A stretch of 32,000 bases of DNA. Origin: an uncultured Bacilli bacterium (GTDB lineage Bacteria > Bacillota_I > Bacilli_A > RF39 > UBA660). The first letter of the stretch is position 1, and the number at the start of each line of letters is the position of its first letter. The position numbers and the translations under genes were made by a program. Below are positions 4,567 to 20,839 of the stretch, one piece after another. The stretch lies in NCBI GenBank assembly GCA_910584085.1, contig CAJTZY010000001.1, positions 172,567-204,566 on the forward strand. The letters are read 5' to 3'. The notes beneath the pieces were generated by a model. The model worked only from the letters and a program-made list of their open reading frames with translations. It did no database searches and was not told the DNA's origin.

Positions 4567-5695
4567 AACATTTCTTAAAGTTTTAAACAAGTGTAAAGGT
4601 ATAATTATTTTTGAAACCGCACTACTAATATTTTTTGGAGGATACAATATAGAAACAAATGATGTTTCTATAAACTTTGTTTCAAGTAATCCAAATATTT
4701 TAATTATAAATAGTGATAAAAAAGAAGGAATTACAAAGAATCTAATAAACTATATAGAAAATAATAGTAATATAGTTGATATCGATGAAAATTTAATAGA
4801 TGATGCATTATTTTATAGGGATGTAAACTATATTATTTATATAAAAGATAACTTTAGAAATAATTTTATTAATAACAACGAAATAGGAATAGAAGTTAAA
4901 AGTACAGGTGATTATCAATCAAGCTTAGCAGAAATGATGCTTAGTAGATATTTAAAAATTGCAAGTATATATAATGAAATATCAAACTCAGAAGAAGAGC
5001 TAATAAGTTATATAGATAATACATTGCAAAATAAAAGTGAGATAGAAACTACCTCAAAATTGAATACAGAAAAATTAAATAAAGCAACAGTTTATTATAA
5101 TTTTACTAATTACTGCTTTTTGGCAGGAAGTATATACGTTATATGCTTGGTACTTTCAAGTTTTAGAAATAAAAATATAAAAATGAGAACTATTATAAGT
5201 AGTATGAACTATAAAAAGTATAATAGAAAATTACTTATTTCATGCAGTATGTTCGCTATAACCTTATGGTTATTATATGTATTACTTAGTTTTATATTAA
5301 TTGGAAGTATTATGTATACAACACATGGATTACTTTACATAATAAATGCTTTAGTATTTACATTTTGTACCTTAACACTTGCATTTCTTCTTGGAAATAT
5401 TTTAAAAAATAAAACCGTCATAAATGGGATTATAAATGTAGTCGCACTAGGTAGTAGTTTTTTATGTGGTGCGTTTGTACCTATGGAATGGTTACCTGAT
5501 TATGTAATTAATATAGCTCACATTTTACCATCATATTATTTTATAAAAAATAATGAATTATTAAAAACAATAGAAGTATTTAATTTTGATACTATGAAAC
5601 CAATAATTATAAATATGATAATAGTAATAATTTTTTCTGGGTTATTTATAATAATTACAAATATAATATCAAAGCGTCAAAGAAAAATTGATTAA
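4553..5695 (+). CDS. ABC-2 family transporter permease (second subunit)
   Basis: Overlaps the previous permease gene by 14 nt. AGGAGA RBS. Same topology as the previous permease: N-terminal TM helix, loop, C-terminal TM bundle. Confidence 0.8.
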   Translation: MIVFKTFLKVLNKCKGIIIFETALLIFFGGYNIETNDVSINFVSSNPNILIINSDKKEGITKNLINYIENNSNIVDIDENLIDDALFYRDVNYIIYIKDNFRNNFINNNEIGIEVKSTGDYQSSLAEMMLSRYLKIASIYNEISNSEEELISYIDNTLQNKSEIETTSKLNTEKLNKATVYYNFTNYCFLAGSIYVICLVLSSFRNKNIKMRTIISSMNYKKYNRKLLISCSMFAITLWLLYVLLSFILIGSIMYTTHGLLYIINALVFTFCTLTLAFLLGNILKNKTVINGIINVVALGSSFLCGAFVPMEWLPDYVINIAHILPSYYFIKNNELLKTIEVFNFDTMKPIIINMIIVIIFSGLFIIITNIISKRQRKID

Positions 5696-6842: not shown

Positions 6843-6880
6843 AAAAATATATAATGATTAATTTTGTAGGGAGTGTAGAC

Positions 6881-7570
6881 ATGAATATTTTAATTGTAGA
6901 TGATGAAAAAGAAATAGCAGATTTAATTGAAATCTACTTAAAGAATGAAAATTATAACGTTTATAAATATTATTCTAGTAAAAATATTTTAAGTGATTTA
7001 GAAAATATTGATATAGATTTAGCAATCTTAGATGTCATGATGCCGAATATAGACGGATTCTCATTGTGTAGTAAAATACGTGAAAAATATAACTTTCCAA
7101 TAATTTTTGTAACTGCTAAGGTAGAAGAAATAGATAAAATAAGTGGTCTTACAATAGGTGCAGATGATTATATAACAAAACCATTTGAACCCTTAGAACT
7201 TGTTGCTCGTGTAAAAGCACACCTCCGTAGGTATAAAAGATATAATAACTTAGAAGAAAAAAATGAAAATATAATAGATTTTAGAAGTGTTATAATAAAT
7301 AGGGATACACATGAATTTTATTTTAACGAAAAGAAAATAGATTTAACTCCAATAGAATTTTCAATACTTTGGTGTTTATGTGAGAATAGAGGTAACGTTG
7401 TTAAAACTGATGATTTATTTGCAAGTGTTTGGAAAGAAAAATATTTTGAGAAAGATAATAATACTATAATGGTTCATATAAGACATTTAAGAGAAAAGAT
7501 GAACGATACAAGTAAAAATCCTAAGTATATAAAAACAATATGGGGAGTGGGGTATAAGATTGAAAATTAA
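6881..7570 (+). CDS. vanR: OmpR-family response regulator, VanR-type
   Basis: ORF 6854..7570. The likely start is ATG 6881 (MNILIVDDEKE). The receiver domain has DD..D (ILDVMMP) and a winged-helix C-terminus (IWGVGYKI). The gene heads a van-type cluster. Confidence 0.88.
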   Translation: MNILIVDDEKEIADLIEIYLKNENYNVYKYYSSKNILSDLENIDIDLAILDVMMPNIDGFSLCSKIREKYNFPIIFVTAKVEEIDKISGLTIGADDYITKPFEPLELVARVKAHLRRYKRYNNLEEKNENIIDFRSVIINRDTHEFYFNEKKIDLTPIEFSILWCLCENRGNVVKTDDLFASVWKEKYFEKDNNTIMVHIRHLREKMNDTSKNPKYIKTIWGVGYKIEN

Positions 7571-8645
7571 GACAAATTACGGGAAAAAATTAACAAATAA
7601 ATTAATAGGTAGAATAATTATTGTAACTATTATTTATACAGTTATATTCGTTGTAACTTGGATAGTTGCTAGATTTATTTGCGGTTTATTTTTATGGTAT
7701 CCACAAAATTTATTATATAATGCATTAACAGCAATTGCTTATAGTGCGCCTAATCTTCTATTAATTTGGTTAGTAGGCTTTATAATAATTGTAATAGTGT
7801 GTTTAAGAAAAACTCTATTCTATATTGATTTAATAGTGGATGCTAGTGGAAAATTAACTAGTACGAGTGAAGAGTTAATAAAACTCCCAAATGATTTAAA
7901 TGAAGTAGAAAAAAGAATGAATCAAATAAAGCAAGTTGCTACATATAATGCGAAACTTGCAAAAGAGAATGAACAAAGAAAAAATGATTTAATTGTCTAT
8001 TTAGCTCATGACATTAAAACACCCCTAACATCTATGATTGGATATTTATCCTTACTTGATGAAGTTAAAGATATGCCAAAAAAACAAAAAGAAAAATATA
8101 CTAAGGTAGCACTTGAAAAATCATATAAATTAGAGGATTTAATAAATGAACTTTTTGATATCGCACGTTTCAATTCAGAAAAAATAATACTTGATAAAGA
8201 AGAATTAAATTTAAATATGATGATAGAACAAATTGTTGATGATTTTTATCCAATATTAAAAGAACTAAACAAAAAAATAACTATAATTAAAAATGAACCT
8301 ATAATACTTTTAGGGGATTCAGATAAACTTGCTAGAGTATTTAGTAATATAATAAAAAATGCAGTAAATTATAGCTTGGATAGTAGTAATATTACTATAG
8401 AAATTACAAAAGTGGATAATTTTGCAAATATTATAATTAGTAATAAGGGTAAGAAAATAAGCGAAGATAAATTAAATAAAATATTCGAAAAATTTTATAG
8501 AGTTGATTCTTCTAGGACAACTAAAACAGGTGGGAGTGGACTTGGACTTGCTATTGCAAAGGAAATCGTCGAACTGCACGGTGGTATAGTAAGTGCGACT
8601 AGCGATGAGAAATATACAAAGTTTTATATAAAACTTCCAATTTAA
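7560..8645 (+). CDS. vanS: sensor histidine kinase, VanS-type
   Basis: TTG start overlapping the vanR stop. Two N-terminal TM helices. H-box LAHDIKTPLTS, N-box IIKNAVNYS, G-box GGSGLGLAIAKEIVELHGG. Confidence 0.88.
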   Translation: MKIKTNYGKKLTNKLIGRIIIVTIIYTVIFVVTWIVARFICGLFLWYPQNLLYNALTAIAYSAPNLLLIWLVGFIIIVIVCLRKTLFYIDLIVDASGKLTSTSEELIKLPNDLNEVEKRMNQIKQVATYNAKLAKENEQRKNDLIVYLAHDIKTPLTSMIGYLSLLDEVKDMPKKQKEKYTKVALEKSYKLEDLINELFDIARFNSEKIILDKEELNLNMMIEQIVDDFYPILKELNKKITIIKNEPIILLGDSDKLARVFSNIIKNAVNYSLDSSNITIEITKVDNFANIIISNKGKKISEDKLNKIFEKFYRVDSSRTTKTGGSGLGLAIAKEIVELHGGIVSATSDEKYTKFYIKLPI

Positions 8646-8703
8646 AATTAATAAAAAAATATATAAATTGATAAATTATTGTACTTATGAAGGGAGATTT
8701 TAG

Positions 8704-9927
8704 ATGAAAAAAATATTATACTACATATTATTTATTTTAATGCTTATTCCAGTGGGTGCTGGAGCAATGGAACTACCTAAACTATATTCAGATAAGGTTT
8801 TACTATATGATCCAGAATCACAAGAAATTCTTTATGAAGAAAAAAGTGAAGAAGTTACAAGTATTGCTAGTTTAACTAAAATTATGACTACTATAGTTGC
8901 CATTGAAAATATAAAAAATTTAGATGAACAGGTAAAAATAACTTGGAATATGTTAAGTGAAGTGCCATATGATGCATCAGTTGCTGGACTAAAAGTGGGC
9001 GATAAAGTTACATATAGGGACTTACTTTATGCATCAATACTGCCATCAGGAGCAGATGCAACAACCGCACTCGCACATAGCATAAGTGGAACAACAGATA
9101 AGTTTATTGTCCTTATGAATAAAAAAGCGAGTGAGTTAGGACTTAAACACACACATTTTTCAAACGTTACAGGTTATGATATAGATAATCATTACAGTAC
9201 TGCAAAGGAAGTATTACAAATACTTTTATATTCATTAAAAAATCCATTATTTAAAGAAATTTATGAAACTAGAACGTATACATTATCAAATGGGTTAAAA
9301 GTAGAAAGCACTGTTAACCGTTATAACAGAACACTTAAATTAGATTTATCAAAAATAATTGGTAGTAAAACTGGTTATACAGGGGATGCTGGACTTTGTA
9401 TGTCGGCCATAATAAGAACTAATAATAAAGACTTAATATTAATCACATTAGGAGCAGAATATTCTAGAACAAACCCATATAATCTAGTTGATACATTAAA
9501 TATAATAGAATATTTAGATGATAATTATAATACCAAAGTGTTATATAAAAAGGATGAAGAACTTTTTAAAATTCCCGTAAAAAATTCAAAAGTAGATGAG
9601 TATATAGTTAAAGTTAAAGATAATATAGAAAAGTATGTTGAAGTTAATTATGACACTTCAGATTTAAAATATGAGTATGATGGTTTAAATGAATTAAGCT
9701 ATAAAAATAAGGAAGGAGAAAAAATAGGGCATATTAACTACTATTATAAAAATAAATTATTTTATGATGAGGATATATATTTAGTAGAAGAACTTAAATT
9801 TTCTTTTTATAAATATTTTATGTCACATATAGTAGAATTTTCTTCATTATTTTTAATAGGTGTTATAATGATTATTTTAATAAAATCAAAATGTAAAAGA
9901 AGAAAGAGAGTCTTAAGTAAATCTTAA
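8704..9927 (+). CDS. serine-type D-alanyl-D-alanine carboxypeptidase (S11/PBP5-like) with a C-terminal membrane anchor
   Basis: Signal peptide, SxxK motif (SIASLTKIMT), KTG motif (SKTGYTGDAG), C-terminal TM helix plus a KRRKR tail. It occupies the vanY position of the cluster. Confidence 0.85.
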   Translation: MKKILYYILFILMLIPVGAGAMELPKLYSDKVLLYDPESQEILYEEKSEEVTSIASLTKIMTTIVAIENIKNLDEQVKITWNMLSEVPYDASVAGLKVGDKVTYRDLLYASILPSGADATTALAHSISGTTDKFIVLMNKKASELGLKHTHFSNVTGYDIDNHYSTAKEVLQILLYSLKNPLFKEIYETRTYTLSNGLKVESTVNRYNRTLKLDLSKIIGSKTGYTGDAGLCMSAIIRTNNKDLILITLGAEYSRTNPYNLVDTLNIIEYLDDNYNTKVLYKKDEELFKIPVKNSKVDEYIVKVKDNIEKYVEVNYDTSDLKYEYDGLNELSYKNKEGEKIGHINYYYKNKLFYDEDIYLVEELKFSFYKYFMSHIVEFSSLFLIGVIMIILIKSKCKRRKRVLSKS

Positions 9928-9934
9928 GACTTTT
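9910..9934 (+). terminator. hairpin/weak terminator that is also a phased TCTTAAG repeat
   Basis: gtcttaag (9910-9917) pairs with cttaagac (9923-9930) around a 5-nt loop, followed by tttt. It contains TCTTAAG at 9911 and 9922, an 11-bp period. Confidence 0.45.
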
Positions 9935-10019
9935 ATAATACTAAATTAAAGAATAACTAATTATTAATTGATACAATTTAAATGTGTTAATTAATAATTT
10001 TTTTAAAGGAGTGATTAAT

Positions 10020-10841
10020 ATGGCTAGAAAAACCTTGACACAAACCTTACCATTTTTAAGACCAATAAGAGTTTTTCAAAGAAACCTATTTTATCAAATA
10101 TCTATGTATTTTGATAAAAATAAATATTCAAAGAATTTTGGTAATTTATTAGGGTATGAAGTATGTAATGCGAAAACACTTATGATTAATGAAAATAGTG
10201 GACAAGATATAATATATCAAAAAAATAAAGTAGATAATTTAAAAATAACAAGTAAAACAATGAATAGAGTACTTATTTATCCAGGTGAGGTATTTTCATT
10301 TTGTTATTTAGCTAAGAATAGCAAAAAATACGGAAAATACAAAAAAGGACTTATTTTAGTTAATGGAAAAATAGTCAAAGAAAAGGGTGGAGGAATATGT
10401 CATCTAAGTAATTTATTGTACTATTTGTTTTTAATGAGTCCTCTTGATATAGTTGAAAGACATGGACATAAATTTAAATCATTTCCAAATCCTGATGAAA
10501 ATTCTTTAGAAGGAATAGATGCTACAATAAGTAGCGGCTGGTTAGATTTAAAAGTAAAAAATAATACAAATAATATATATCAAATTGTAATTGACTTTGA
10601 CGATGATTATATGTACGCTAAAATACTTACAAATAATAATGTTAATGTAAAATATTCTATTATTAATAGTAATTTTAAATACATAAAAAAGAATAATAAA
10701 ATATATGAAAATGTATCAGTTGTTAAAATAATTAAAGATAAAAACACTAATGAAATGATATCTAGTCGAAAGTTATATGATGAAGTTGTAGAGGTAAGGT
10801 ACAAATTACCTGATAGTGTAAAAATAGAGGAGGAATTATGA
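10020..10841 (+). CDS. vanW: VanW family protein
   Basis: ORF 9984..10841. AAAGGAG at 10006-10012 favours the ATG at 10020. It has the VanW-like core GEVFSF...GGGICHLSNLLYY. It is coupled to the downstream ligase gene by an ATGA overlap. Confidence 0.85.
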   Translation: MARKTLTQTLPFLRPIRVFQRNLFYQISMYFDKNKYSKNFGNLLGYEVCNAKTLMINENSGQDIIYQKNKVDNLKITSKTMNRVLIYPGEVFSFCYLAKNSKKYGKYKKGLILVNGKIVKEKGGGICHLSNLLYYLFLMSPLDIVERHGHKFKSFPNPDENSLEGIDATISSGWLDLKVKNNTNNIYQIVIDFDDDYMYAKILTNNNVNVKYSIINSNFKYIKKNNKIYENVSVVKIIKDKNTNEMISSRKLYDEVVEVRYKLPDSVKIEEEL

Positions 10842-11881
10842 GTAAAATAAAAGTTGCTATAATTTTTGGTGGATGTTCTAGTGAATATCAAGTTTCACTA
10901 GTATCTGCATCATCAGTTATTAGAAATATGAATAAAGAAAAATATGAAGTTATAATGATAGGAATAACAAAAATAGGAGATTTTTATTTATATAATGGAG
11001 ATATAGACTCTATAGAAAAAGATAATTGGTTTAATGAATCAAGAGTGGAAAAAATAACATTTTCAAGTAACAAGAGTGATAAGGGATTTATTATTTTAAA
11101 AACTGGTGAACTTGTAAAAATTGATATTGTATTTCCTATTTTACATGGAAAAAATGGAGAAGATGGTAGACTTCAAGGATTAATGGAACTATCTGATATT
11201 AAATATATCGGTTGTAATATGATATCATCCTCTATTTGTATGGATAAATATATATCAAAAAAATTAGTAGAGATGAGTGGTATACCAACTTCAAAGTCCT
11301 ATTCATTTAGTAGTTTAGATAGTTATAGTGATATAGAAGATAAAATTAGTGATTTAAACTATCCTATATTTGTAAAACCACTCGCATCTGGCTCATCATA
11401 TGGAATTACTAAAGTGAAATCCAAAAAAAATTTAAAAGATGCAATCAAAAAAGCTTTCACTTATGATGATGAAATAATAATAGAGGAAAATATAGATGGA
11501 TTTGAAGTTGGTTGCGCGATAATGGGAAATAAAGAACTCATAATAGGTGAGGTTGATGAAATAGAACTAAGTACTGATTTTTTTGATTATACAGAAAAAT
11601 ACACACTAAAAACGAGTAAGATTCATGTACCTGCTAGATTAGATGAAGATATAAGAAAGCAAATTAAAATGACTGCATTAAGTATATATAAAACACTTAA
11701 ATGTTCTAATCTTGCAAGGGTAGATATGTTCTATACTAAGGATAAAAAAATTGTCTTTAATGAGGTAAATACTTTACCAGGTTTCACCTCACACAGTAGA
11801 TATCCTAGTATGCTAAAGAAAAGCGGATATTCTTTTAGTGAAATTATTGATAAATTAATAGAACTAGGACTTAAAAAATGA
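10838..11881 (+). CDS. vanG: D-alanine--D-serine ligase, VanG-like (Ddl family)
   Basis: Ddl/ATP-grasp motifs are present: KVAIIFGG.S.EY.VSL, FPILHGKNGEDGRLQG, NEVNTLPGFTSHSRYP. The omega-loop region EIELSTDFFDYTEKYTLKTSKI matches what I recall of VanG-class ligases. It sits next to vanXY and a racemase, and there is no vanH. Confidence 0.85.
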   Translation: MSKIKVAIIFGGCSSEYQVSLVSASSVIRNMNKEKYEVIMIGITKIGDFYLYNGDIDSIEKDNWFNESRVEKITFSSNKSDKGFIILKTGELVKIDIVFPILHGKNGEDGRLQGLMELSDIKYIGCNMISSSICMDKYISKKLVEMSGIPTSKSYSFSSLDSYSDIEDKISDLNYPIFVKPLASGSSYGITKVKSKKNLKDAIKKAFTYDDEIIIEENIDGFEVGCAIMGNKELIIGEVDEIELSTDFFDYTEKYTLKTSKIHVPARLDEDIRKQIKMTALSIYKTLKCSNLARVDMFYTKDKKIVFNEVNTLPGFTSHSRYPSMLKKSGYSFSEIIDKLIELGLKK

Positions 11882-12615
11882 AAAAATATATACTTAAACA
11901 CTCGGATATTTATAAAGGCAATTTAATATTAGTAAATAAAGAACACAAAATAAATACGGAAATTAATTCAAATAATCTAGTTTCATTTAATAATAATTAT
12001 AGCAATATATTACTTGATGAATCTGCAAATAAGTTTTTACAAATTATATTAAAAGAAATTAATGGTTTAAATCAAATTATTCCAGTAAGTGGATATAGAA
12101 GCTTAATGGAGCAAGAAGAAATTTATTTTTCATCTATAAAAGAAAATGGTGAAGACTTTACAAAAAAATATGTCGCACTACCAAATTCTAGTGAGCATCA
12201 AACAGGCCTTGCTATAGACTTAGGACTTAATACTGGAAAAATAGATTTTATAAGACCATCATTTCCAAATAGTAGAATTTGTGATAATTTTAGAAAAACA
12301 TCAATAAATTATGGATTTATAGAAAGATATGAAAGTGAAAAAGAAAATATAACAGGTATAGGTAAAGAAGAATGGCATTTTAGATATGTTGGTTATCCAC
12401 ATTCAGTTATTATGAAGGAAAAAAATCTTTGTTTAGAAGAATACATAAATTATTTAAGGCAGTATGAAAAAGATAGTTTAAAATATAAAAATTATGAGAT
12501 ATCTTACATACCTTATAATAATGAAGATATAGAACTAACAATAGAAAATAATACAGTAATATCAGGAAACAATGTAGATGGATTTATAATTACAAGGAAT
12601 ATGCATGAAAAATAA
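11878..12615 (+). CDS. vanXY: bifunctional D,D-dipeptidase/D,D-carboxypeptidase VanXY (M15 family)
   Basis: Zn-ligand and catalytic motifs SGYRS..EQ, SEHQTGLAIDL and EEWHFRYVG. ATGA overlap with the ligase gene. Confidence 0.88.
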   Translation: MKKYILKHSDIYKGNLILVNKEHKINTEINSNNLVSFNNNYSNILLDESANKFLQIILKEINGLNQIIPVSGYRSLMEQEEIYFSSIKENGEDFTKKYVALPNSSEHQTGLAIDLGLNTGKIDFIRPSFPNSRICDNFRKTSINYGFIERYESEKENITGIGKEEWHFRYVGYPHSVIMKEKNLCLEEYINYLRQYEKDSLKYKNYEISYIPYNNEDIELTIENNTVISGNNVDGFIITRNMHEK

Positions 12616-13627
12616 TGTAAAAATTAATCTTGATAAATTTAGATTTCTAGCTGCCCTTTTAGTAATTTCAATACATACATATCCATTTTTAAATATAAAT
12701 AGTGAAATAGACTATATTATTACTAGAGTACTTGCAAGAACTTTAGTTCCATTTTTCCTTATGACAACCGGTTATTTTCTTATTCCAAAGGCACTTAAAC
12801 ATAAAGAAATATTAAATGGTTATGTAAAGAAGATAATAAAAATATATATTATTTGTATCTTAATTTATTTACCTATAAATATTTATACAAAGGGCCTTGA
12901 TAATCTAAACCTTATAAATATCCTTAAAGGCATATTTATAGATGGAACCTTCTATCACCTATGGTATTTCCCCGCACTTATTCTAGGAATTTTAATAACT
13001 TGTACAATACTAAAAAAATTAAATAATAAAAAATCCTTTATCATATTCATTATTCTTTATTTAATAGGATTATTTGGTGATAGTTATTATGGCTTAATTA
13101 AAAATACAATATTTGAAAATGTTTATAACTATATATTTATGATTTCAAATTATACAAGAAATGGATTATTTTATGTACCTATATTTTTGTATTTAGGTTA
13201 TACATTTAATACCCATAATTATAACATTACTAAAAAACAGAATATAATACTTTTAATACTTTTCAGTATTTTATTAGGACTTGAGGGATATAACTTATAC
13301 TTATTAGATATACCAAGACATAACAGTATGTATTTAACATTAATACCATGCATGATTTTATTATTTAATCTGCTAATTAAAACAAATGATACACAAAGTA
13401 GAAACTTAAGAGAAATATCAGAACTTATATATATTATTCATCCTATGTCAATTATTTTTATAAGAGGTATTGCTAAATTTATTAAACTGGAAAACATTAT
13501 GATAAATAATAATTTTATTCATTATATATGTGTAGTAATTTTAACTTTAATTATATGTATTATATTTATAAAAATAAAGGAAGTAATAAAACATGGCTTT
13601 AGAAAAAGAAGAAACTTCACTATCTAG
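12605..13627 (+). CDS. vanT: VanT membrane (acyltransferase-3-like) domain protein, the N-terminal part of the serine racemase VanT
   Basis: Polytopic membrane protein of about 10 TM helices, directly upstream of the racemase ORF and overlapping it by 35 nt. This corresponds to the N-terminal half of single-chain VanT proteins. Confidence 0.8.
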   Translation: MKNNVKINLDKFRFLAALLVISIHTYPFLNINSEIDYIITRVLARTLVPFFLMTTGYFLIPKALKHKEILNGYVKKIIKIYIICILIYLPINIYTKGLDNLNLINILKGIFIDGTFYHLWYFPALILGILITCTILKKLNNKKSFIIFIILYLIGLFGDSYYGLIKNTIFENVYNYIFMISNYTRNGLFYVPIFLYLGYTFNTHNYNITKKQNIILLILFSILLGLEGYNLYLLDIPRHNSMYLTLIPCMILLFNLLIKTNDTQSRNLREISELIYIIHPMSIIFIRGIAKFIKLENIMINNNFIHYICVVILTLIICIIFIKIKEVIKHGFRKRRNFTI

Positions 13628-14729
13628 TAGAGCTTGGATAGAAATAAATGTAGAAAATTTAATTTATAACATAAAACAAATAGAAAATATAATACCCAAG
13701 GATACTAAAATAATGGCAGTCGTTAAGGCAAATGCTTATGGGCATGGTATGATTACTATATCTAAAATATTAGAGGAGTATGGTATAAATGATTTTGCAG
13801 TTGCAACAATTGAAGAGGGAATAACTTTAAGAAAAAATGGACTAAAAGGAAATATTTTAATACTAGGATATACAGACCTAAGTAAAATAGAGGATATAAT
13901 AAAATATAATTTAATTCAAACTATAGTAGACTATGAATATGCATATAAGTTATCAACACTTAATTTATCAAAAAAAGTTAAAGTACATATTAAAATAAAT
14001 ACTGGAATGAATAGACTAGGAGAAAGTTATAAAAATATTGATAGTATTAAAAAAATATATAAATTTAAAAACCTTAATATTCTTGGAATATATACCCATC
14101 TTGTAGCACCAGATAGTCTTTTAAAAGAAGATATAAAATTTACACAAAGTCAAATAAATAATTTTTATACTTTAATAAATATATTAAAAACTGAAGGATA
14201 TAATGTAGGAAAAATACATATTCAAAGTAGTTATGGAATTCTAAATTATTCGAATCTTAAATGTGACTATGTAAGACCGGGGATTATTATGTATGGAGTT
14301 TGTAGTGGGAACACTAGGATAAAAATAAATCTTAAGCCAGTTCTTTCATTAAAGGCTAAAGTAACGAGTATTAAATATATAGCTAAAAATGAACCAGTTA
14401 GTTATGGTAGAAAATATATAACAAATAAAAACATTAAAATAGCAACTGTCTCTATTGGATATGCAGATGGATTGCCTAGAAGTTTATCACTCAAAAACAC
14501 TAAAGTACTTATAAATAATCATTATGCCGAAATTATTGGTAGAATTTGTATGGATCAGTTAATAATAGACATATCTAATTTAAATGTAAAAGTAGGGGAT
14601 GCAGTTACACTAATAGGTGATAAATATTATATTAGAGCAAATTTTATAGCAAAAAAAGCAAGTACAATACCAAATGAATTATTAAGTAGATTAGGTAATA
14701 GACTAGAATATAAAATAGTAAAAAATTAA
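13593..14729 (+). CDS. vanT: PLP-dependent serine/alanine racemase, the C-terminal part of VanT
   Basis: Alr-family motifs: PLP-lysine AVVKANAYGHG, plus NTGMNRLG and VSYG...A.V.IGYADG. It has its own AAGGAAG RBS 9 nt upstream of the ATG at 13593. Confidence 0.88.
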   Translation: MALEKEETSLSSRAWIEINVENLIYNIKQIENIIPKDTKIMAVVKANAYGHGMITISKILEEYGINDFAVATIEEGITLRKNGLKGNILILGYTDLSKIEDIIKYNLIQTIVDYEYAYKLSTLNLSKKVKVHIKINTGMNRLGESYKNIDSIKKIYKFKNLNILGIYTHLVAPDSLLKEDIKFTQSQINNFYTLINILKTEGYNVGKIHIQSSYGILNYSNLKCDYVRPGIIMYGVCSGNTRIKINLKPVLSLKAKVTSIKYIAKNEPVSYGRKYITNKNIKIATVSIGYADGLPRSLSLKNTKVLINNHYAEIIGRICMDQLIIDISNLNVKVGDAVTLIGDKYYIRANFIAKKASTIPNELLSRLGNRLEYKIVKN

Positions 14730-14832
14730 ATCAGTTTATTTAATAATATTCTTATTACATTTTATATTTATATTTTGATAATAAGGCTTTTTTCTTTTTT
14801 TTAAAAAAATTTAAAAATAAAATAAGGAAGTA

Positions 14833-14877
14833 TGCTATAATATAACTGTTGTGAGTAATAAAGTTAACTTAATACTC
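14833..14877 (+). promoter_or_regulatory. candidate DGR promoter (extended -10) followed by an imperfect inverted repeat
   Basis: TGcTATAAT at 14833-14841. Imperfect palindrome gagtaataaagtt/aacttaatactc at 14853-14877, centred on gttaac, upstream of the avd RBS. Confidence 0.35.
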
Positions 14878-14904
14878 ATTAACTAGTTAGAGGTTATAGT
14901 TAAA

Positions 14905-15486
14905 ATGTATCAAGTAAGTAGAGATAGTAATTTAAAAATTCCCAAAAAAATTGAAATAAATTATAAAAATATAAATAGTAATGATGAAATAATTGCTATA
15001 AAAAAAGCTATTTGTATAGCCAAAGATAAAAAATATATAAATAATTTAAGTAGCAATCTAAAAATAACTGATAAGGAACTAGATCTAGTATCAAAAATAC
15101 CATGTAATTCGAACGACCTAGTAGTTATAACAACAATGAAAAAATTGGGAGCTTATGTAATTACAATAACAGAAAAGTCCCCTAAAAAATTTAGAAGGGT
15201 ATTTGTAAATAGAATGCAAAATTATTGTTTAGAAACGTTAGAATATTTACTTGAAGCTAATTTTATTAGAATAGATTCAATAGATAAGAAACTACAAAGA
15301 GAAGAATTACAAAAAGAGGCAATAATTAAGTTAAAACTTTTAGGATATATTTCTATGGTCGCACAATCATCTGGGTGTATTTTAGGCAGACAATATAAAC
15401 AAATTTCTATTCAGCTAACTAAAGTAATTAATTTAATAATTGCCTGGAAAAAAAGTGACGATGATAGATGGAAATTAAAAAAATAG
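14905..15486 (+). CDS. avd: DGR accessory variability determinant (Avd-like four-helix-bundle protein) with an N-terminal extension of about 70 aa
   Basis: The C-terminal ~120 aa are basic and helical (SPKKFRRVFVNRMQNYCLETLEYLLEA ... QISIQLTKVINLIIAWKKS), which parallels the Avd pattern. The gene lies immediately 5' of the TR and RT. Confidence 0.75.
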   Translation: MYQVSRDSNLKIPKKIEINYKNINSNDEIIAIKKAICIAKDKKYINNLSSNLKITDKELDLVSKIPCNSNDLVVITTMKKLGAYVITITEKSPKKFRRVFVNRMQNYCLETLEYLLEANFIRIDSIDKKLQREELQKEAIIKLKLLGYISMVAQSSGCILGRQYKQISIQLTKVINLIIAWKKSDDDRWKLKK

Positions 15487-15557
15487 GATTATAAGTTGAA
15501 AGACTTTTAATTAAGGGAAAAATTAAATTGTGAGGCCACTTGTCCTAGTCCTTAGTT

Positions 15558-15631
15558 CGCCCGCGCGGTTAACTAAAACGGAAATAAGAATTGGAATAAT
15601 GTTAATAAACGTGATGGTGGTTGTCGTCCAG
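15558..15631 (+). repeat. DGR template repeat (TR)
   Basis: GC-rich ends (cgcccgcgcggtt ... gtgatggtggttgtcgtccag) around an A-rich core with 24 adenines. In the VR frame it carries 7 AAY codons. It matches VR 17219-17291 at every C, G and T. Confidence 0.92.
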
Positions 15632-15844
15632 ATTCACTTTTGAAGAGATTTATTGTAATCTAAAAAACAAGTGAGAGAATATATTTTATGTGAGATATGT
15701 GAGTACTGTAAAGTGAAGGAATTTTTCTCTTTTCTAATCGCTAAAAGGAATTAGTGCGATGGGAAAATTGTTGACACCTACACAACCAACAAATATTATA
15801 TATATTTTTTGGGAGTTATAAGAGGTGTTTTTTTAGGAGTAAAT
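15632..15844 (+). ncRNA. DGR spacer RNA region between the TR and the RT start (part of the TR-containing transcript)
   Basis: Non-coding stretch between the TR and the RT RBS (AGGAG at 15835-15839). The call rests on its position in the DGR architecture only; I did not resolve any structure. Confidence 0.4.
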
Positions 15845-16864
15845 ATGAAGTTAAATGAAATTTTTAATTTTGAAAATTTGTATAGAGCACATAAAAATTG
15901 CCGTAAATCTAAACAACATAAAGGTGAAGTAATAAGATTTGAAACTAATTTAAGTGCCAATATAATGAATATAATAGATGAAATATGCACAAAAAAATAT
16001 AAATTAGGGAAATATAAAAGATTTCTCATTTATGAACCAAAAGAAAGATTAATAGAGGCACTTCCTTATAAAGATAGAGTAGTTATAAGGTGTTTTTGTG
16101 ATGCATGTCTAAAAGATAGAATAGAAAAAAAATTAATTTTTGATAATGCAGCTTGCAGAGTAGGCAAAGGTACTAATTTTTCAATACAAAGATTACATAA
16201 ATTTTTAAGAAGTGAATATATAAAAGAAAATAATAATGAAATATATTTTTTAAAGTGTGATATTAAGAAATATTTTCCAAGTATTAATCATAATATTTTG
16301 ATAAATTTATTAGAGAAGGTTGGATTTTCAAGTGATGAGATGTGGTTTATTAAAAAGATTATATGTGAACAACCAAGTAATAGAGATGTTGGCTTACCAC
16401 TTGGAAATCAATCAAGCCAGTGGTTCGCACTTTTATATTTAAATGAAATAGATAGATTAATTAAGGAAAAGTTGAGAGTTAAGTGCTATGTAAGATATAT
16501 GGATGATATGATTTTAATTCATAGAGATAAAAAATTTTTAAGGGAGTGTAAGGATCTTATAGAGAGAATGTGTAAAGATAGACTTAAACTATCATTAAAC
16601 CAGAAAACTGGAATAGGTAAAGTAAGCAATGGAATAGATTTTTTAGGATATCGGCATATTTTAAATTGTAGAGGACGCGTTATAATTAAGCTTAGGGCAT
16701 CTTCTAAAATTAGATTGAAAAGACATATTAAAACACTAATGAAACTTAGGAAAAACGAGGTAGTTGATGACAATTATATTTTATTACGTAAAAATTCATT
16801 TTATGAACATATAAGATTAACTAATGAAAGTAAAGAATTAAAAAATATTGTTATACCTAAATAA
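15845..16864 (+). CDS. DGR reverse transcriptase
   Basis: ORF 15809..16864. AGGAG at 15835-15839 favours the ATG at 15845. LGNQSSQ at 16400-16420 is the DGR-type [ILV]GxxxSQ motif. YMDD catalytic motif at 16496-16507. There is no maturase/En domain and no intron RNA. Confidence 0.92.
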   Translation: MKLNEIFNFENLYRAHKNCRKSKQHKGEVIRFETNLSANIMNIIDEICTKKYKLGKYKRFLIYEPKERLIEALPYKDRVVIRCFCDACLKDRIEKKLIFDNAACRVGKGTNFSIQRLHKFLRSEYIKENNNEIYFLKCDIKKYFPSINHNILINLLEKVGFSSDEMWFIKKIICEQPSNRDVGLPLGNQSSQWFALLYLNEIDRLIKEKLRVKCYVRYMDDMILIHRDKKFLRECKDLIERMCKDRLKLSLNQKTGIGKVSNGIDFLGYRHILNCRGRVIIKLRASSKIRLKRHIKTLMKLRKNEVVDDNYILLRKNSFYEHIRLTNESKELKNIVIPK

Positions 16865-16887
16865 TTGCAAATTATTTATTTGCAATT
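16863..16887 (+). other. perfect 10-bp hairpin between the RT and the target gene
   Basis: aattgcaaat (16863-16872) pairs with atttgcaatt (16878-16887) around a 5-nt loop. There is no strong T-run, so it could be an attenuator, a processing site or a weak terminator. Confidence 0.4.
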
Positions 16888-17218
16888 ATAAATTTTATAA
16901 AGAACAAAGTGTACTTTTTTTGATATTATTAGTAAATTTTGATGTAAATAATTTAAAAATAATATAAAATATGCTATACTTAAAATAGGTGATGTAAATG
17001 AATAAAATTAATTTAACACTTTTAACAGTAGAAGAAATTTTTGGAAGTGATAAGAAGAAGCCGTTAGAAATATTTGAAAAATATGGAACAAAAGCAGCAA
17101 TAACAGATTTTTCAGTAGCCTTAGGAGGATATATAAATGATAACTTCTTTACTGATGATGGTAAATCATTAGCTAATAGAACAGGATGGTGGTGGACCAA
17201 AAGTCCAATAAACAACGA

Positions 17219-17291
17219 CGCCCGCGCGGTTGACTGGATCGGGAGTAAGGGTTGGATAGTGTTAATGAACGTGGTGGTGGTTGTCGTCCAG
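17219..17291 (+). repeat. DGR variable repeat (VR)
   Basis: 73 nt. Compared with the TR there are 11 substitutions, all at TR adenines, plus one A deleted. The invariant 3' end gtggtggttgtcgtccag looks like an IMH. The VR covers codons ~75-98 of the target. Confidence 0.92.
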
Positions 17292-18934
17292 CTTTACCGT
17301 TCTCATCAATCTCTAAAATCTCCTCGAACGTAGTGAGAGGTAGAAATGGTATTCTCGAAGTAGAATTTGGAGAATATCCACAGTGGACTTGTTCAAAACA
17401 ATTAGGTAAAACATTAGAAAGATTGTATAGAAGTAACACCCTAAATAAAACAGGAAAATGTTATACAACAGATTCTAGACCATATAGTGAATATGATAAG
17501 GGATTCGCTTCTCAAAAACATATAGAATATGAATATAATGGTAAAAAATATGTTAGAGTCAAGGTTAATTCATATTTTGATGGTAGTGAAATAACATTTT
17601 CAAATGGAGAAAAGTATAAAGATGGGGATTTTATTTGGATTAGTGTTAGCCCTATAAAATGGTTAGTAGATGAAAAAAATGATTTAGCAATTACTAAAAA
17701 CATAATAGTATCTGGAGTTCAGTTTAATATAGAAAGTAATTATAATGGGAAAAATTTTGATAAGATGAATATAAAAAAATTTTTTGATAACGATTTATCA
17801 AAAGATATAGTATTATCAAAAGATTATGATGTAAATTTAAATAAGACTGATATAATGCCCAAAAACTTATTGAAAAAGAAAAATCCATATAATTTTAACT
17901 TTGATAATGTAAGTGAAGAGGATATAATAAAAGGTTCAGTAGAGAGCAATGTTTCAGTATTTTTACATGGACAATCAAGTGAGGGTAAAAGTGCAAGGGT
18001 AAAACAATTAGATCCAGATTTAGAAATCATATATTTGGGTACAGCAACACCAGAAAGTTTAAATGGAAAAAGTGTGTATAATTCTAATACAGGAGAAATG
18101 ATAGATGTTCCTCCTACATGGTATAAAAAAATCAAACAAAAATGCGAAAGTGAACCAAATAAAATTCACATATTGTTTTTTGATGAATTAACAAATGCAG
18201 TACCTTCAATACAAAAAATGGCATTTAATATTGTACTTGATAAGGAAATAGACGGAAAGTGGAAACTTCCAGATAATGTAAGAATAGTTGCAGCTGGAAA
18301 TGAGTTAAATGATTCCCTTGCAGCTAATACAATGGCGGAACCATTATTTAACCGTTTCGCACATGTATATATACAAACAACAGCTGAATCTTGGTTAAAA
18401 TGGGCGTGTACGCCAGAGCAAGAGTATAAGAGATTAGATTATCAGGAGTCAAAACAAGAATATAAAATACATCCTGCAATTTATTCTTTTATAGCATTTA
18501 GGGGAGATGAAGTTTTAAGAACAGAATATACTGGCGATAAACCAAATGCAGATCCAAGAAAATGGGAATTAGCCTCTAAGGTACTATACCAAACTAGAAA
18601 TCCTGAAATGCTAAGGGCCTTAGTTGGTGAAGATATAACATCTGAGTTTTGTGCATTTTGTAAACAACGGGTTATAACTCTTGAAGATGTTATTAATGAC
18701 AATTATTCAGAGTATGATTTAGAAATGGGAATGTCAGAAAAGTATGCTACTATAGTAGGATTATCTCGATGTAATTATGAAAATCTAAAAAAAGTTAGAA
18801 TTTTTGCAATGAAATTAGGTTCAGAATTTTGTGCGTTATTTGATAGTTTATGGGCGCATGGCGACTTAGAAAGAGTAGAAAAAATTGCAGAATTAACGAT
18901 AGATAATGATTATATTGGAGGTATGAAAAAATGA
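17252..18934 (+). CDS. AAA+ ATPase (MoxR/AAA_5-like) ORF as it stands, the downstream part of the frameshifted DGR target
   Basis: Walker A GQSSEGKS (17969-17992), Walker B ILFFDE (D-E at 18182-18187), sensor-1 RIVAAGN, and EPLFNRF, an Arg-finger-like motif. Upstream there is a region with EFGEYPQ and SPIKWLV motifs. Confidence 0.8.
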   Translation: MDSVNERGGGCRPALPFSSISKISSNVVRGRNGILEVEFGEYPQWTCSKQLGKTLERLYRSNTLNKTGKCYTTDSRPYSEYDKGFASQKHIEYEYNGKKYVRVKVNSYFDGSEITFSNGEKYKDGDFIWISVSPIKWLVDEKNDLAITKNIIVSGVQFNIESNYNGKNFDKMNIKKFFDNDLSKDIVLSKDYDVNLNKTDIMPKNLLKKKNPYNFNFDNVSEEDIIKGSVESNVSVFLHGQSSEGKSARVKQLDPDLEIIYLGTATPESLNGKSVYNSNTGEMIDVPPTWYKKIKQKCESEPNKIHILFFDELTNAVPSIQKMAFNIVLDKEIDGKWKLPDNVRIVAAGNELNDSLAANTMAEPLFNRFAHVYIQTTAESWLKWACTPEQEYKRLDYQESKQEYKIHPAIYSFIAFRGDEVLRTEYTGDKPNADPRKWELASKVLYQTRNPEMLRALVGEDITSEFCAFCKQRVITLEDVINDNYSEYDLEMGMSEKYATIVGLSRCNYENLKKVRIFAMKLGSEFCALFDSLWAHGDLERVEKIAELTIDNDYIGGMKK

Positions 18935-19338
18935 GTCAAGAAAAAAGATTAGAAATGTTAAATGATTATATTAAAATGAATATTGCTCCTATCTTAGTGG
19001 AAAATATCCCATCTAATATATTTGGAAGTAATTCAGTTATTCTTCCAGCAGAACTTGATATATCAATGCTAAATGGGCATTATGAAGGGATAGAATTTAT
19101 GCCTCCTTCATGGTATGTTCAAGTAGTTAGAAATTCTAGTAGTAGCAATAATATCTTAGTGATAGATGAAATCTCAAGGGTATCAAAAGAAGATCAAATG
19201 AAATTTTATGAACTATTAAAGTATCGAAAAATTGGAACATTTGATTTACCAAAAAATTGTGTAATAATTATTACTTGCAGAGATAAGAATATTCCATTAA
19301 TTAATGAAAAATTAGTATCTTTATTTGTACATATTTAG
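18931..19338 (+). CDS. small Walker-A-less AAA-like protein (degenerate paralogue of the upstream ATPase core)
   Basis: ATGA overlap with the ATPase gene; GGAGG RBS. LNGHYEGIEFMPPSWY...ILVIDEISRVS...VIIITCRD...LVSLFVHI aligns by eye with LNGKSVYN..DVPPTWY...ILFFDELTNAV...RIVAAGNE...FNRFAHVYI of the upstream protein. Confidence 0.65.
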   Translation: MSQEKRLEMLNDYIKMNIAPILVENIPSNIFGSNSVILPAELDISMLNGHYEGIEFMPPSWYVQVVRNSSSSNNILVIDEISRVSKEDQMKFYELLKYRKIGTFDLPKNCVIIITCRDKNIPLINEKLVSLFVHI

Positions 19339-19345
19339 GTGAATT

Positions 19346-20839
19346 ATGATTGTAGATAAAGATACTATAAAAAAAAGATTACTTGTAAAATATCCTTTTT
19401 TTAGAAGTACAATAGCTAAACTTAAAATAGTTGAAGATATAAATTGTCTAGGATATAATGGTAATCCAACAGCTGGTACAGATGGAGATACAGTATATTA
19501 CCATCCAGACTTTATGAATAACTTAGATGAAGATGAACAACTTTTTATATTTGCTCATGAAGTTGGTCATGTCGCTCTCAATCACATTATAAGAAGTGAA
19601 GGTAGAGATCAAGAAATTTGGAATATAGCAGCAGATGCCGTTTTAAATGCAAATTTAATTAAGGATGGTTTAAAGTTTGTTAAGGGCGGGGTTAATATTC
19701 CAGAAGCCATTAATTACAATGCAGAAACCTTTTATAATAAATTGATTCAGGAAAAAGAACAAAAAAAATCACAAAATCAAAAAGGTAATGGTAATCAACA
19801 ATCAAATTCAAAGGCGGATGAGTGTAAAAATAGTAGTCAAAGTGATTCTAGTAATCAAAATATAAAACAAAATAGTAATGACAGCAATAATATACCCGAT
19901 GATGCAAACTATGATGTCGGATTTGATACTCATAAAATGTGGAATGATGCGATAAATAAGACATTTAATTCTAGTGATGGAACAAATGAATTAGATAACT
20001 CCAAAAATGACCGTAATAACAAGGATAAACAGAGTTTTCTAGAAAAACTATTTAAAAAAAAGAAAGACAAAGGTAGACAATTAGAACAAACTGAAAAGGA
20101 AAATCAGGAAAGCGAAAATCAAAATAATATTTTTGAAATGGATGAACAAGAGGCATTCAGCAAAAATAGAGAGGAAAAGAAAAAATTACTTAGGGAATTA
20201 AGGGATTCATTTGCCAAACAGTCTATAGGTGCAGGGAATACTACTGATCAGTCAATAAGGAAGATAGATAATATTGGAACATCTATTTCATTAATAGACT
20301 GGAGAAAATTACTAAAAGAATGTGTAAAGTTTGATATAGATTGGACTTATAAAAATGCAACTATAGAAAATGGTGTAGTTACTCCATATCTTGAAGAAAC
20401 TCCAACGCCAGAAACTGAAATAGTTTTAGATACCAGTGGGTCAATAGATGATAATTTACTTAGAAATTTTTTAATGGAATGCAAAAATATACTTCAGACA
20501 TCCAAAGTGAAAGTGGGATGCTTCGATACTAAATTTTATGGTTTTCAGGAGATTAAAACGGTTAAAGACATAGAAAATATGGAATTTAAAGGACATGGCG
20601 GTACAGATTTTAATGTTGCAGTAGAAGCTTTCTCAAAACGTGTAGAAAATAAAATAATATTTACTGATGGTCAAGCGAGTATGCCAGAAAAGTCAATAGA
20701 TGCAATTTGGATAGTTTTTGGTGGAAGGAAAATTAATCCTAAAGGTGGAAAGGTAATTTATATTTCGGACGAACAATTTAAAAGATTATGCTTTAAACAA
20801 AATGATGATAATTTACAAGGTAAGAATAGGACAAGATAA
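19346..20839 (+). CDS. DUF2201-type protein: N-terminal HExxH putative metallopeptidase, low-complexity linker, C-terminal vWA-like domain
   Basis: FIFAHEVGHVALNH (HEVGH at 19556-19570) followed by WNIAADAVLN. MIDAS-like VLDTSGSID (20429-20443). GHGGTDF and IIFTDGQ motifs. A linker of about 170 aa is rich in N, Q, S, K, E and D. Confidence 0.85.
   Translation: MIVDKDTIKKRLLVKYPFFRSTIAKLKIVEDINCLGYNGNPTAGTDGDTVYYHPDFMNNLDEDEQLFIFAHEVGHVALNHIIRSEGRDQEIWNIAADAVLNANLIKDGLKFVKGGVNIPEAINYNAETFYNKLIQEKEQKKSQNQKGNGNQQSNSKADECKNSSQSDSSNQNIKQNSNDSNNIPDDANYDVGFDTHKMWNDAINKTFNSSDGTNELDNSKNDRNNKDKQSFLEKLFKKKKDKGRQLEQTEKENQESENQNNIFEMDEQEAFSKNREEKKKLLRELRDSFAKQSIGAGNTTDQSIRKIDNIGTSISLIDWRKLLKECVKFDIDWTYKNATIENGVVTPYLEETPTPETEIVLDTSGSIDDNLLRNFLMECKNILQTSKVKVGCFDTKFYGFQEIKTVKDIENMEFKGHGGTDFNVAVEAFSKRVENKIIFTDGQASMPEKSIDAIWIVFGGRKINPKGGKVIYISDEQFKRLCFKQNDDNLQGKNRTR

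Follow-up and report, generated by a model that had tools for sequence, protein, structure and literature searches.

Diversity-generating retroelements (DGRs) are usually seen as protein-evolution machines that avoid stop codons and diversify the C-terminal surfaces of proteins found outside the cell or on virions. In the DGR of phage BPP-1 (Mtd/bRT/bAvd), sequence passes with adenine-specific changes from a template repeat (TR) to a variable repeat (VR) at the C-terminus of a tail fibre, and the genes are ordered target-avd-TR-RT, where RT is the reverse transcriptase. Across DGRs, a C-terminal VR in a C-type lectin fold is the conserved, typical organisation (Roux et al., 2021; PMC8144416), only three DGRs have been recorded as diversified at the N-terminus and frameshifting insertions and deletions (indels) are known in TR/VR pairs (Wu et al., 2018; PMC5758913), and AAY codon usage and RT bias are stated, in recent experimental work, to serve stop avoidance (PMC12875486). 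Other close systems are the DUF6273 DGRs of gut Firmicutes, such as that of Faecalibacterium phage FP_Toutatis, with phage structural or receptor-binding targets and a VR at the C-terminal end of DUF6273, a C-lectin-like domain of gut-phage DGR targets (bioRxiv 10.1101/2024.10.15.618418; PMC10743442), and the MoxR-vWA ternary conflict systems of cyanobacteria and purple sulfur bacteria, which combine a DGR with a MoxR-class AAA+ ATPase and a vWA protein and in which the variable lectin-like domain is proposed to be an intracellular sensor (Kaur et al., 2020, PMC7159879; Dore et al., 2024, PMC10907252). Here, we describe a DGR-like locus in a 32,000-nucleotide (nt) stretch, hereafter the window, of the genome of an uncultured Bacilli bacterium of the RF39 group (assembly GCA_910584085.1, contig CAJTZY010000001.1, positions 172,567 to 204,566), in which an avd-like gene, a TR, an RT gene and a target gene follow one another; window positions are used below, and the parts of the DGR and of its target operon lie on the forward strand.

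We are close to certain that this element is a DGR, a call that stands because the TR and VR differ only at adenines, because of the type of its RT, and because a conserved, covarying spacer RNA encloses the TR. With good confidence, we further read it as a chromosomal member of a distinct DGR lineage of low-GC gut Firmicutes that diversifies the N-terminus of an ATPase and generates many knock-out alleles, including the one assembled here. Adenine-specific TR-to-VR transfer, the I/LGxxxSQ and YMDD motifs of the RT, a weakly Avd-like gene directly upstream of the TR, a structured RNA spacer between TR and RT, and a GC-rich VR 3' end resembling the initiation of mutagenic homing (IMH) sequence are all shared with BPP-1. 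Unlike BPP-1, the locus has a chromosomal context, the order avd-TR-RT-target, an N-terminal, internal VR and an in-frame stop codon in the TR.

The TR (15558 to 15631; 74 nt, 24 adenines) and the VR (17219 to 17291; 73 nt) were compared by computed local alignment, which gives A>G changes at TR positions 15571, 15575, 15576, 15582, 15584, 15589, 15590, 15599, 15607 and 15614, an A>T change at 15578, and the absence from the VR of one A of the pair at 15595/15596. All 12 differences are thus at adenines (P = 1.2e-7 if they fell at random over 74 positions with 24 A). A preliminary description of this DNA, in which the repeats were aligned by eye, had listed every one of these differences and had named mismatches at other bases as a sign against a DGR; the alignment contains none, and all C, G and T of the TR are unchanged. 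Its further readings of the pair also hold. Similarity ends abruptly on both sides, as it had claimed; in the VR frame, the TR translates as ARAVN*NGNKNWNNVNKRDGGCRP, with seven AAY codons and one TAA; and the proposed IMH-like end is seen as a GC-rich, invariant 3' stretch common to both repeats (17275 to 17291 in the VR; TGGTGGTTGTCGTCCAG), which is followed by a VR-specific C at 17292. The corresponding TR side carries a putative IMH*-like discriminator (15632 to 15634), ATT past the TR against CTT past the VR, and in every TR/VR pair of the lineage the motif CCAG[A/C]TT is fixed with A in the TR and C in the VR, with divergence beyond it.

A pattern made from the 3' half of the TR with its adenines degenerate matches only the TR and the VR in the window and nothing in 100 shuffles, and no third copy was seen among the repeat families listed by the repeat finder, in which the pair forms families D6 and D14. 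Among the 11 substitutions in this VR, 10 are A>G, compared with 43% of adenine changes in related loci (binomial p = 0.0015), an excess that could reflect a species-specific misincorporation bias or selection. At 17322 to 17340, 31 nt 3' of the VR, a candidate cis hairpin (CCTC-GAACGTAGTGA-GAGG) may be the counterpart of the target-recognition hairpin of BPP-1 (PMC3240598). A perfect 4-base-pair stem is present there in 20 of 24 DGR-linked targets, as against 25 of 70 unlinked ones (Fisher p = 9e-5), and compensatory variants of the stem occur (CCAC/GTGG, CTAC/GTAG, CCCC/GGGG and CCCT/AGGG). We treat this hairpin as no more than a lead, given its short, weak stem and the shared ancestry of the loci.

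The RT gene (15845 to 16864) is an intact open reading frame (ORF) of 339 amino acids (aa) that matches Pfam RVT_1 (E = 4.8e-18) and contains both the LGNQSSQ and the YMDD motif that had been attributed to it. Its best sequence match in the PDB is 8ub7_A, a 328-aa RT that we take to be the BPP-1 bRT (E = 2.9e-36), with IGSLTSQ and YMDD in the aligned part; matches to a group II intron RT (1.9e-10) and a retron RT (1e-9) are about 26 orders of magnitude weaker. Grouping of the enzyme with intron, retron or Abi RTs, which the preliminary description had offered as grounds for rejecting a DGR, is not borne out by this PDB search; no tree was built. Hundreds of RT relatives at 35-44% identity are found within DGR-like loci of IMG/VR.

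Upstream, the avd-like gene (14905 to 15486) encodes 193 aa, including an N-terminal extension of about 72 aa, and matches Pfam bAvd (PF22296) at residues 73-184 with E = 0.002 and 18.9 bits (cut-off 40) and NCBIfam DivGenRetAVD (NF033474) with E = 1e-5 and 25.6 bits (cut-off 80). BPP-1 bAvd has 128 aa. The product is thus about 65 aa longer than bAvd as well as a weak match to Avd models; a PDB sequence search with it gave no match, and it has no detectable sequence similarity to the Avd of FP_Toutatis. About 27 related loci have the gene at the corresponding position, with 60-68% identity. An Avd-like gene ahead of the TR, as first described, is present and conserved in position, with hidden Markov model (HMM) matches that are weak and below threshold.

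Between the avd stop codon and the RT start lies a region predicted to encode a structured DGR RNA (15487 to 15844; 358 nt) that contains the TR. Folding of an alignment of this spacer from 18 loci with RNAalifold yielded 66 base pairs, 33 of them with compensatory double changes. The predicted elements are a GAAA hairpin at the 5' end (15487-15512), a long-range helix enclosing the TR (15513-15524/15720-15731), a helix directly after the TR (15633-15640/15710-15717), three small hairpins (15646-15661, 15679-15700 and 15733-15763), and a terminal hairpin (15772-15830), followed by a U run ahead of the ribosome-binding site of the RT gene. The window copy retains all of these helices. Conserved structure of this kind is expected of functional DGR RNAs. 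An Rfam scan of 14000-19500 at E<=1 matched no family. Just upstream of the RT gene and within the terminal hairpin, there is a near-consensus promoter-like site at 15771-15799 (TTGACA, 17 nt, TATTAT); the promoter and terminator scan is uninformative in DNA of 25% GC, where chance promoter matches are common. The element had been called active-looking, a judgement consistent with the intact ORFs, the conserved and covarying spacer RNA, and the absence of non-adenine mismatches, and the DGR machinery is probably functional.

The target gene (16998 to 18934) is split into two ORFs in different frames, 16998-17333 (111 aa) and 17252-18934. Because an adenine is lost at 17255-17256, where the TR has GGAATAAT and the VR has GGATAGT, the reading frame is shifted and the gene divided. 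Reinsertion of one A restores a protein of 645 aa, which has over 3,500 intact database homologs of similar length (about 645 aa; about 58% identity, 99% coverage), and the deposited annotation lists the two fragments separately (P0124 and P0001). As read from the sequence, the target allele in this assembly is a frameshifted knock-out. The VR codes for residues 75-98 of the repaired protein and is thus inside the coding sequence near the N-terminus rather than at the C-terminus, which is a typical feature of DGRs and not an obligatory one. In an alignment of 20 homologs, hypervariability is confined to the VR segment, which is flanked by DARVV and RxGGxRPALPYSS. The epithet "textbook", applied in the preliminary description, does not suit this DGR: the target is null here, the VR is N-terminal in an AAA+ ATPase, and the TR carries an in-frame stop. 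That description had recorded the lost A and the TR stop, but not that the first shifts the target frame and that the second sits at a diversified position.

This in-frame stop, a TAA at 15574 to 15576, stands opposite TGG (Trp) in the VR. At this codon, 10 related TRs also have TAA or TAG (offsets 16-17). Across the lineage, 13 of 21 TRs contain in-frame stops, one or two per TR and at two codon positions that recur, compared with 1 of 81 unrelated DGRs (Fisher p = 3e-10). For this control, TR/VR pairs were called de novo in 151 unrelated DGR loci, and 81 pairs had a confident frame; none of the 81 has a premature stop in the VR, and their VRs end in C-terminal GFRC-type motifs. The sole control locus with an internal TAA in the TR (L136) reads LN*SGG in the TR and LHSSGG in the VR. 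Template stops evidently exist outside the lineage but are rare, and the lineage itself departs from the stop-avoidance rule described for DGRs.

Stops also reach the targets. In-frame stops were found in 5 of 23 TR-linked targets, all inside the VR at the positions of TR stop codons (TAA changed to TGA or TAG, or left unchanged), and in a further locus, L085 (OIZF01000011.1, a metagenome contig; 4825-4905), the VR has one extra nt relative to the TR and the target is frameshifted. With the window counted, null alleles caused by the VR amount to 7 of 30 DGR-linked targets (5 nonsense, 2 frameshift), and there are none among 70 unlinked homologs (p = 1.3e-4). An alternative genetic code was ruled out for the VR stops, as both TAG and TAA are involved and those genes have no other in-frame stops; collapse of TR and VR during assembly was likewise ruled out, as the stops are mutated (TGA, TAG) or flanked by VR-specific bases. 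In the pooled pairs, 41.6% of TR adenines are changed, with G:C:T = 103:64:60, and TAA codons are still stops in the VR in 6 of 13 cases, where 56% would be expected without selection (p = 0.58). The stop rate looks close to neutral.

Target relatives occur in 259 genomes of a scan with one genome per species, mostly metagenome-assembled genomes (MAGs) of uncultured gut Bacilli, 'Tenericutes' and Clostridia. Among the 78 related loci kept, about 27 have avd and RT directly upstream of the target, always in the order avd-TR-RT-target, and about 20 loci linked to avd and RT have a TR of 77-100 nt in the avd-RT spacer, mostly with 0-1 non-adenine mismatches, as found by alignment with an adenine-tolerant scoring matrix. 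When the loci from genome contigs are pooled with the window, 271 of 299 differences start at a TR adenine. Ten more close loci from metagenomes and IMG/VR have the avd-RT-target order in 7 cases and a comparable adenine-only TR/VR pair in 5. RT identity within the lineage is at least about 50% (52-55% for the most distant members kept), and to other DGR RTs it is at most 44%. The literature searched gave no account of the target family or of template-encoded stops, and the DGR lineage is distinct and apparently undescribed. The gene order avd-TR-RT-target, reported earlier as inverted, is present; its being special is not supported, as it is the norm of the lineage and FP_Toutatis is annotated as avd (191 aa)-TR-RT-target, which makes it a known arrangement.

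Nine of the related loci retain only RT fragments upstream of an intact target operon, and some others keep the operon with no RT at all; the DGR seems to have been lost several times from loci that kept the ATPase/VWA operon. At seven loci, between two and five target paralogs stand in tandem, in many cases with no RT nearby, and an identical 196-nt VR region is present in three copies in one of them (L036) and in two copies in another (L030). One lineage member with a full target operon (L163; IMGVR_UViG_3300006217_003178) comes from a 40-kb contig that IMG/VR lists as viral.

The domain structure of the target was examined with an AlphaFold2 (AF2) model of a 60%-identical homolog (P0009; predicted local distance difference test, pLDDT, 77), which shows an alpha/beta region (1-100), a beta-rich region (115-270), an AAA+ core (305-480) and a helical C-terminus. 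In Foldseek searches, the best PDB match of this model is NorQ (E = 6e-7, probability 1.0), and in a viral structure library AAA_5/MoxR-like phage ATPases are best, down to E = 3e-16; in both libraries, the matches of the full-length model are mostly due to the AAA domain. Pfam AAA_5 matches are weak (4 of 50 target-family members), and a PDB sequence search with the target-family profile gave no meaningful match. The modelled AAA+ core agrees with the MoxR/AAA_5 type, close to NorQ. The target system is taken as cytoplasmic, since no obvious signal peptide or hydrophobic N-terminus was seen by eye.

Two genes follow the target in nearly all 78 related loci. The first (18931 to 19338) encodes a 135-aa partial paralog of the target AAA core, from Walker B to the sensor and without Walker A (BLASTP E = 5e-6 against the target; no Pfam match), that may be an inactive subunit or a regulator. 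The second (19346 to 20839) encodes a 497-aa VWA-metallopeptidase with DUF2201_N, including HExxH (E = 5e-28), and a DUF2201 VWA-like domain (E = 1.3e-15). NorQ belongs to the MoxR class of ATPases, and its partner is the VWA protein NorD. The window operon resembles NorQ/NorD and other MoxR-VWA chaperone pairs in the structural match to NorQ and in the nearby VWA gene, two genes downstream; unlike them, nothing ties it to nitric oxide reductase or to metal insertion, and its ATPase has two extra N-terminal domains, one of them hypervariable.

The closest system in logic is the MoxR-vWA ternary conflict system, and the differences are several: there, the vWA component or STAND NTPases bear the variable C-lectin/FGS domain at their C-terminus, and here the variable segment is at the N-terminus of the ATPase; their third component is a VMAP protein, and here it is an AAA fragment, with a DUF2201 metallopeptidase as the vWA partner; their hosts are multicellular bacteria, and here the host is a small-genome gut Firmicute. 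We do not file the locus under the VMAP ternary family. In layout, the closest are the DGRs of the FP_Toutatis type. The variable segment here ends in a G.RPAL-type motif, as in DUF6273, and Pfam DUF6273 (PF19789) matches 5 of 50 homologs at E<=0.01, one of which passes the cut-off (25.4 against 23.5 bits) with profile positions 103-169 of 172 on residues 23-97; the target protein of the window itself has no Pfam DUF6273 match. Only the last ~70 profile positions are thus represented, at the N-terminus of an AAA+ ATPase, unlike the C-terminal placement in the phage proteins. By tblastn, the N-terminal domain matched none of 50,697 phage genomes, and a word-indexed search of proteins with the first 115 aa of the target retrieved only fragments of its own family. 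The variable domain probably serves as a tunable sensor that binds ligands at the head of an ATPase/VWA machine.

Several points weigh against the reading given above. The Avd assignment is based on HMM matches below curated cut-offs. The DUF6273 matches are partial and mostly under the cut-off, and a lectin fold of the variable domain is unconfirmed: the AF2 model of the isolated N-terminal domain has a pLDDT of 48, too poor for use, and hhalign of the family against the FP_Toutatis DUF6273 protein aligns the WW...G.RPAL motif with 4.5% probability. PADLOC assigns no defence family to the target, the 135-aa protein or the VWA protein. In the counts of stops and null alleles, numbers are small and related MAG consensus loci are treated as independent. 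The VR of the window is known from assembled sequence and not from reads. In a separate Logan assembly of the same run (ERR3199593), two contigs match the window exactly on either side of a gap of 523 nt (17124-17646) that includes the VR; the contig breaks lie 96 nt before and 356 nt after the VR, away from its edges.

The last of these points leads to the best-placed alternative, that the missing adenine is an artefact of assembly, polishing or sequencing in which mixed VR variants were collapsed, and that the target is intact in the cell. Consensus assembly is error-prone in hypervariable regions, the second assembly does not span the VR, and indels occur in 0 of 23 related TR/VR pairs from genome contigs. 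However, the deletion falls exactly on a TR adenine pair with no long homopolymer, both target fragments are in the deposited annotation, L085 is an independent lineage member with a +1 VR indel, five other loci have nonsense codons confined to the VR, and frameshifting TR/VR indels are known in other DGRs (PMC5758913). We therefore consider an artefact possible yet doubtful, and favour, with moderate confidence, a biological frameshift. A contig from a second sample (SRR28895759) ends about 108 nt into the target gene, and that sample contains a TR with 2 differences from the window TR; the contig breaks fit heterogeneity around the VR. An exact-pattern scan of the metagenomes of the Joint Genome Institute (JGI) for the window TR or VR returned 0 matches. 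We infer that the adenine deletion arose during reverse transcription and that the DGR may still be active in this strain. The assembly gap over the VR in ERR3199593 and the hypervariable segment of the protein family are indirect signs of such activity.

A second alternative concerns the role of the knock-outs: the TR stops would be kept by selection, and the DGR, besides diversifying its target, would randomly turn on and off (phase variation) a system that would be costly or self-reactive. The stops are strongly enriched and conserved in position within the lineage, TAA-templated codons persist as stops at a rate indistinguishable from the ~0.56 expected without selection, unlinked homologs show no nulls, and the lineage runs against the AAY design that avoids stops (PMC12875486). 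On the other side, one sub-clade of the lineage works without TR stops, and TAA, TGA and TGG codons reach Trp, Leu, Phe, Tyr, Cys and Ser, a set that AAY cannot reach in full; Trp is common at one of the stop positions in the family, and the stops may be a tolerated cost. The loci are also few and related, and a MAG consensus may miss the dominant alleles. We regard selection for switching as unlikely, at a level slightly below that of an artefact. Finally, the idea that the cassette is a decaying relic, with a pseudogene for a target and a TR/VR similarity left from past activity, finds some support in the disrupted target and in the related loci that keep the target operon with RT fragments or no RT, but is improbable given zero non-adenine mismatches in 74 nt, intact avd and RT ORFs, retention of all RNA helices in the window copy, intact downstream operon genes, and a nearly identical TR in the second sample.

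The surroundings of the DGR are chromosomal, with genes for RpoD, an ABC-2 transporter and a vanG-like operon upstream and EamA, GH5 cellulase and LiaF-like genes downstream. The vanG-type vancomycin-resistance-like operon (6854-14729) lies directly upstream of the DGR and encodes a response regulator, a histidine kinase, an S11 carboxypeptidase, VanW, a D-Ala-D-Ala ligase family member, a VanY-domain protein, an acyltransferase and an alanine/serine racemase; its VanT-like function is split between overlapping ORFs in different frames (12605-13627 and 13593-14729). The RpoD-like sigma factor (844-2373; 509 aa) has at most 40% identity to database proteins other than those of two Logan contigs, and the window has a GC content of 24.9%. 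Judged by sequence comparison, the host is in a very poorly sampled Firmicutes lineage.

Returning to the reading that we prefer, of a DGR that diversifies an ATPase N-terminus and often disables its target, a mechanism can be proposed on the BPP-1 paradigm. The TR would lie in the structured RNA, about 360 nt long, from between avd and the RT gene, and the RT, with the Avd-like protein, would copy this RNA into cDNA with misincorporation opposite template adenines. This cDNA would then replace the VR in the gene immediately downstream, the replacement being bounded at the 3' side by the GC-rich IMH-like end and the fixed A/C discriminator. Diversification would affect about 24 codons close to the N-terminus of the MoxR/NorQ-like AAA+ ATPase, a 645-aa protein taken to be cytoplasmic and proposed to work with its operon partners, the small AAA-fragment protein and the VWA-metallopeptidase. 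Because the TR has a TAA at a diversified codon and the RT would occasionally make 1-nt indels at adenines, many retrohoming events would yield knock-outs, of which the window allele, with 11 adenine substitutions and one deleted A that shifts the frame, may be an example. More speculatively, and with a probability we put as low, each retrohoming event would both redraw a binding surface and toss a coin for the gene being on or off, a switch over an intracellular module of sensor-ATPase and VWA-protease that is possibly an anticipatory immune or conflict system.

The lineage breaks three habits of DGRs, in having an N-terminal, internal VR, a cytoplasmic AAA+ target that shares its operon with a VWA-metallopeptidase, and template stops with about a quarter of assembled alleles null. 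Its target family is large (more than 3,500 protein clusters; relatives in 259 species genomes) and unannotated, and the lineage offers a concrete case in which to measure how frequently a DGR harms the gene that it diversifies. Knock-outs kept by selection, if that is what these are, would represent a new mode of phase variation; and if the target is a sensor, the idea of a 'hypermutated antigen sensor' would extend from multicellular cyanobacteria to unicellular bacteria of the gut.

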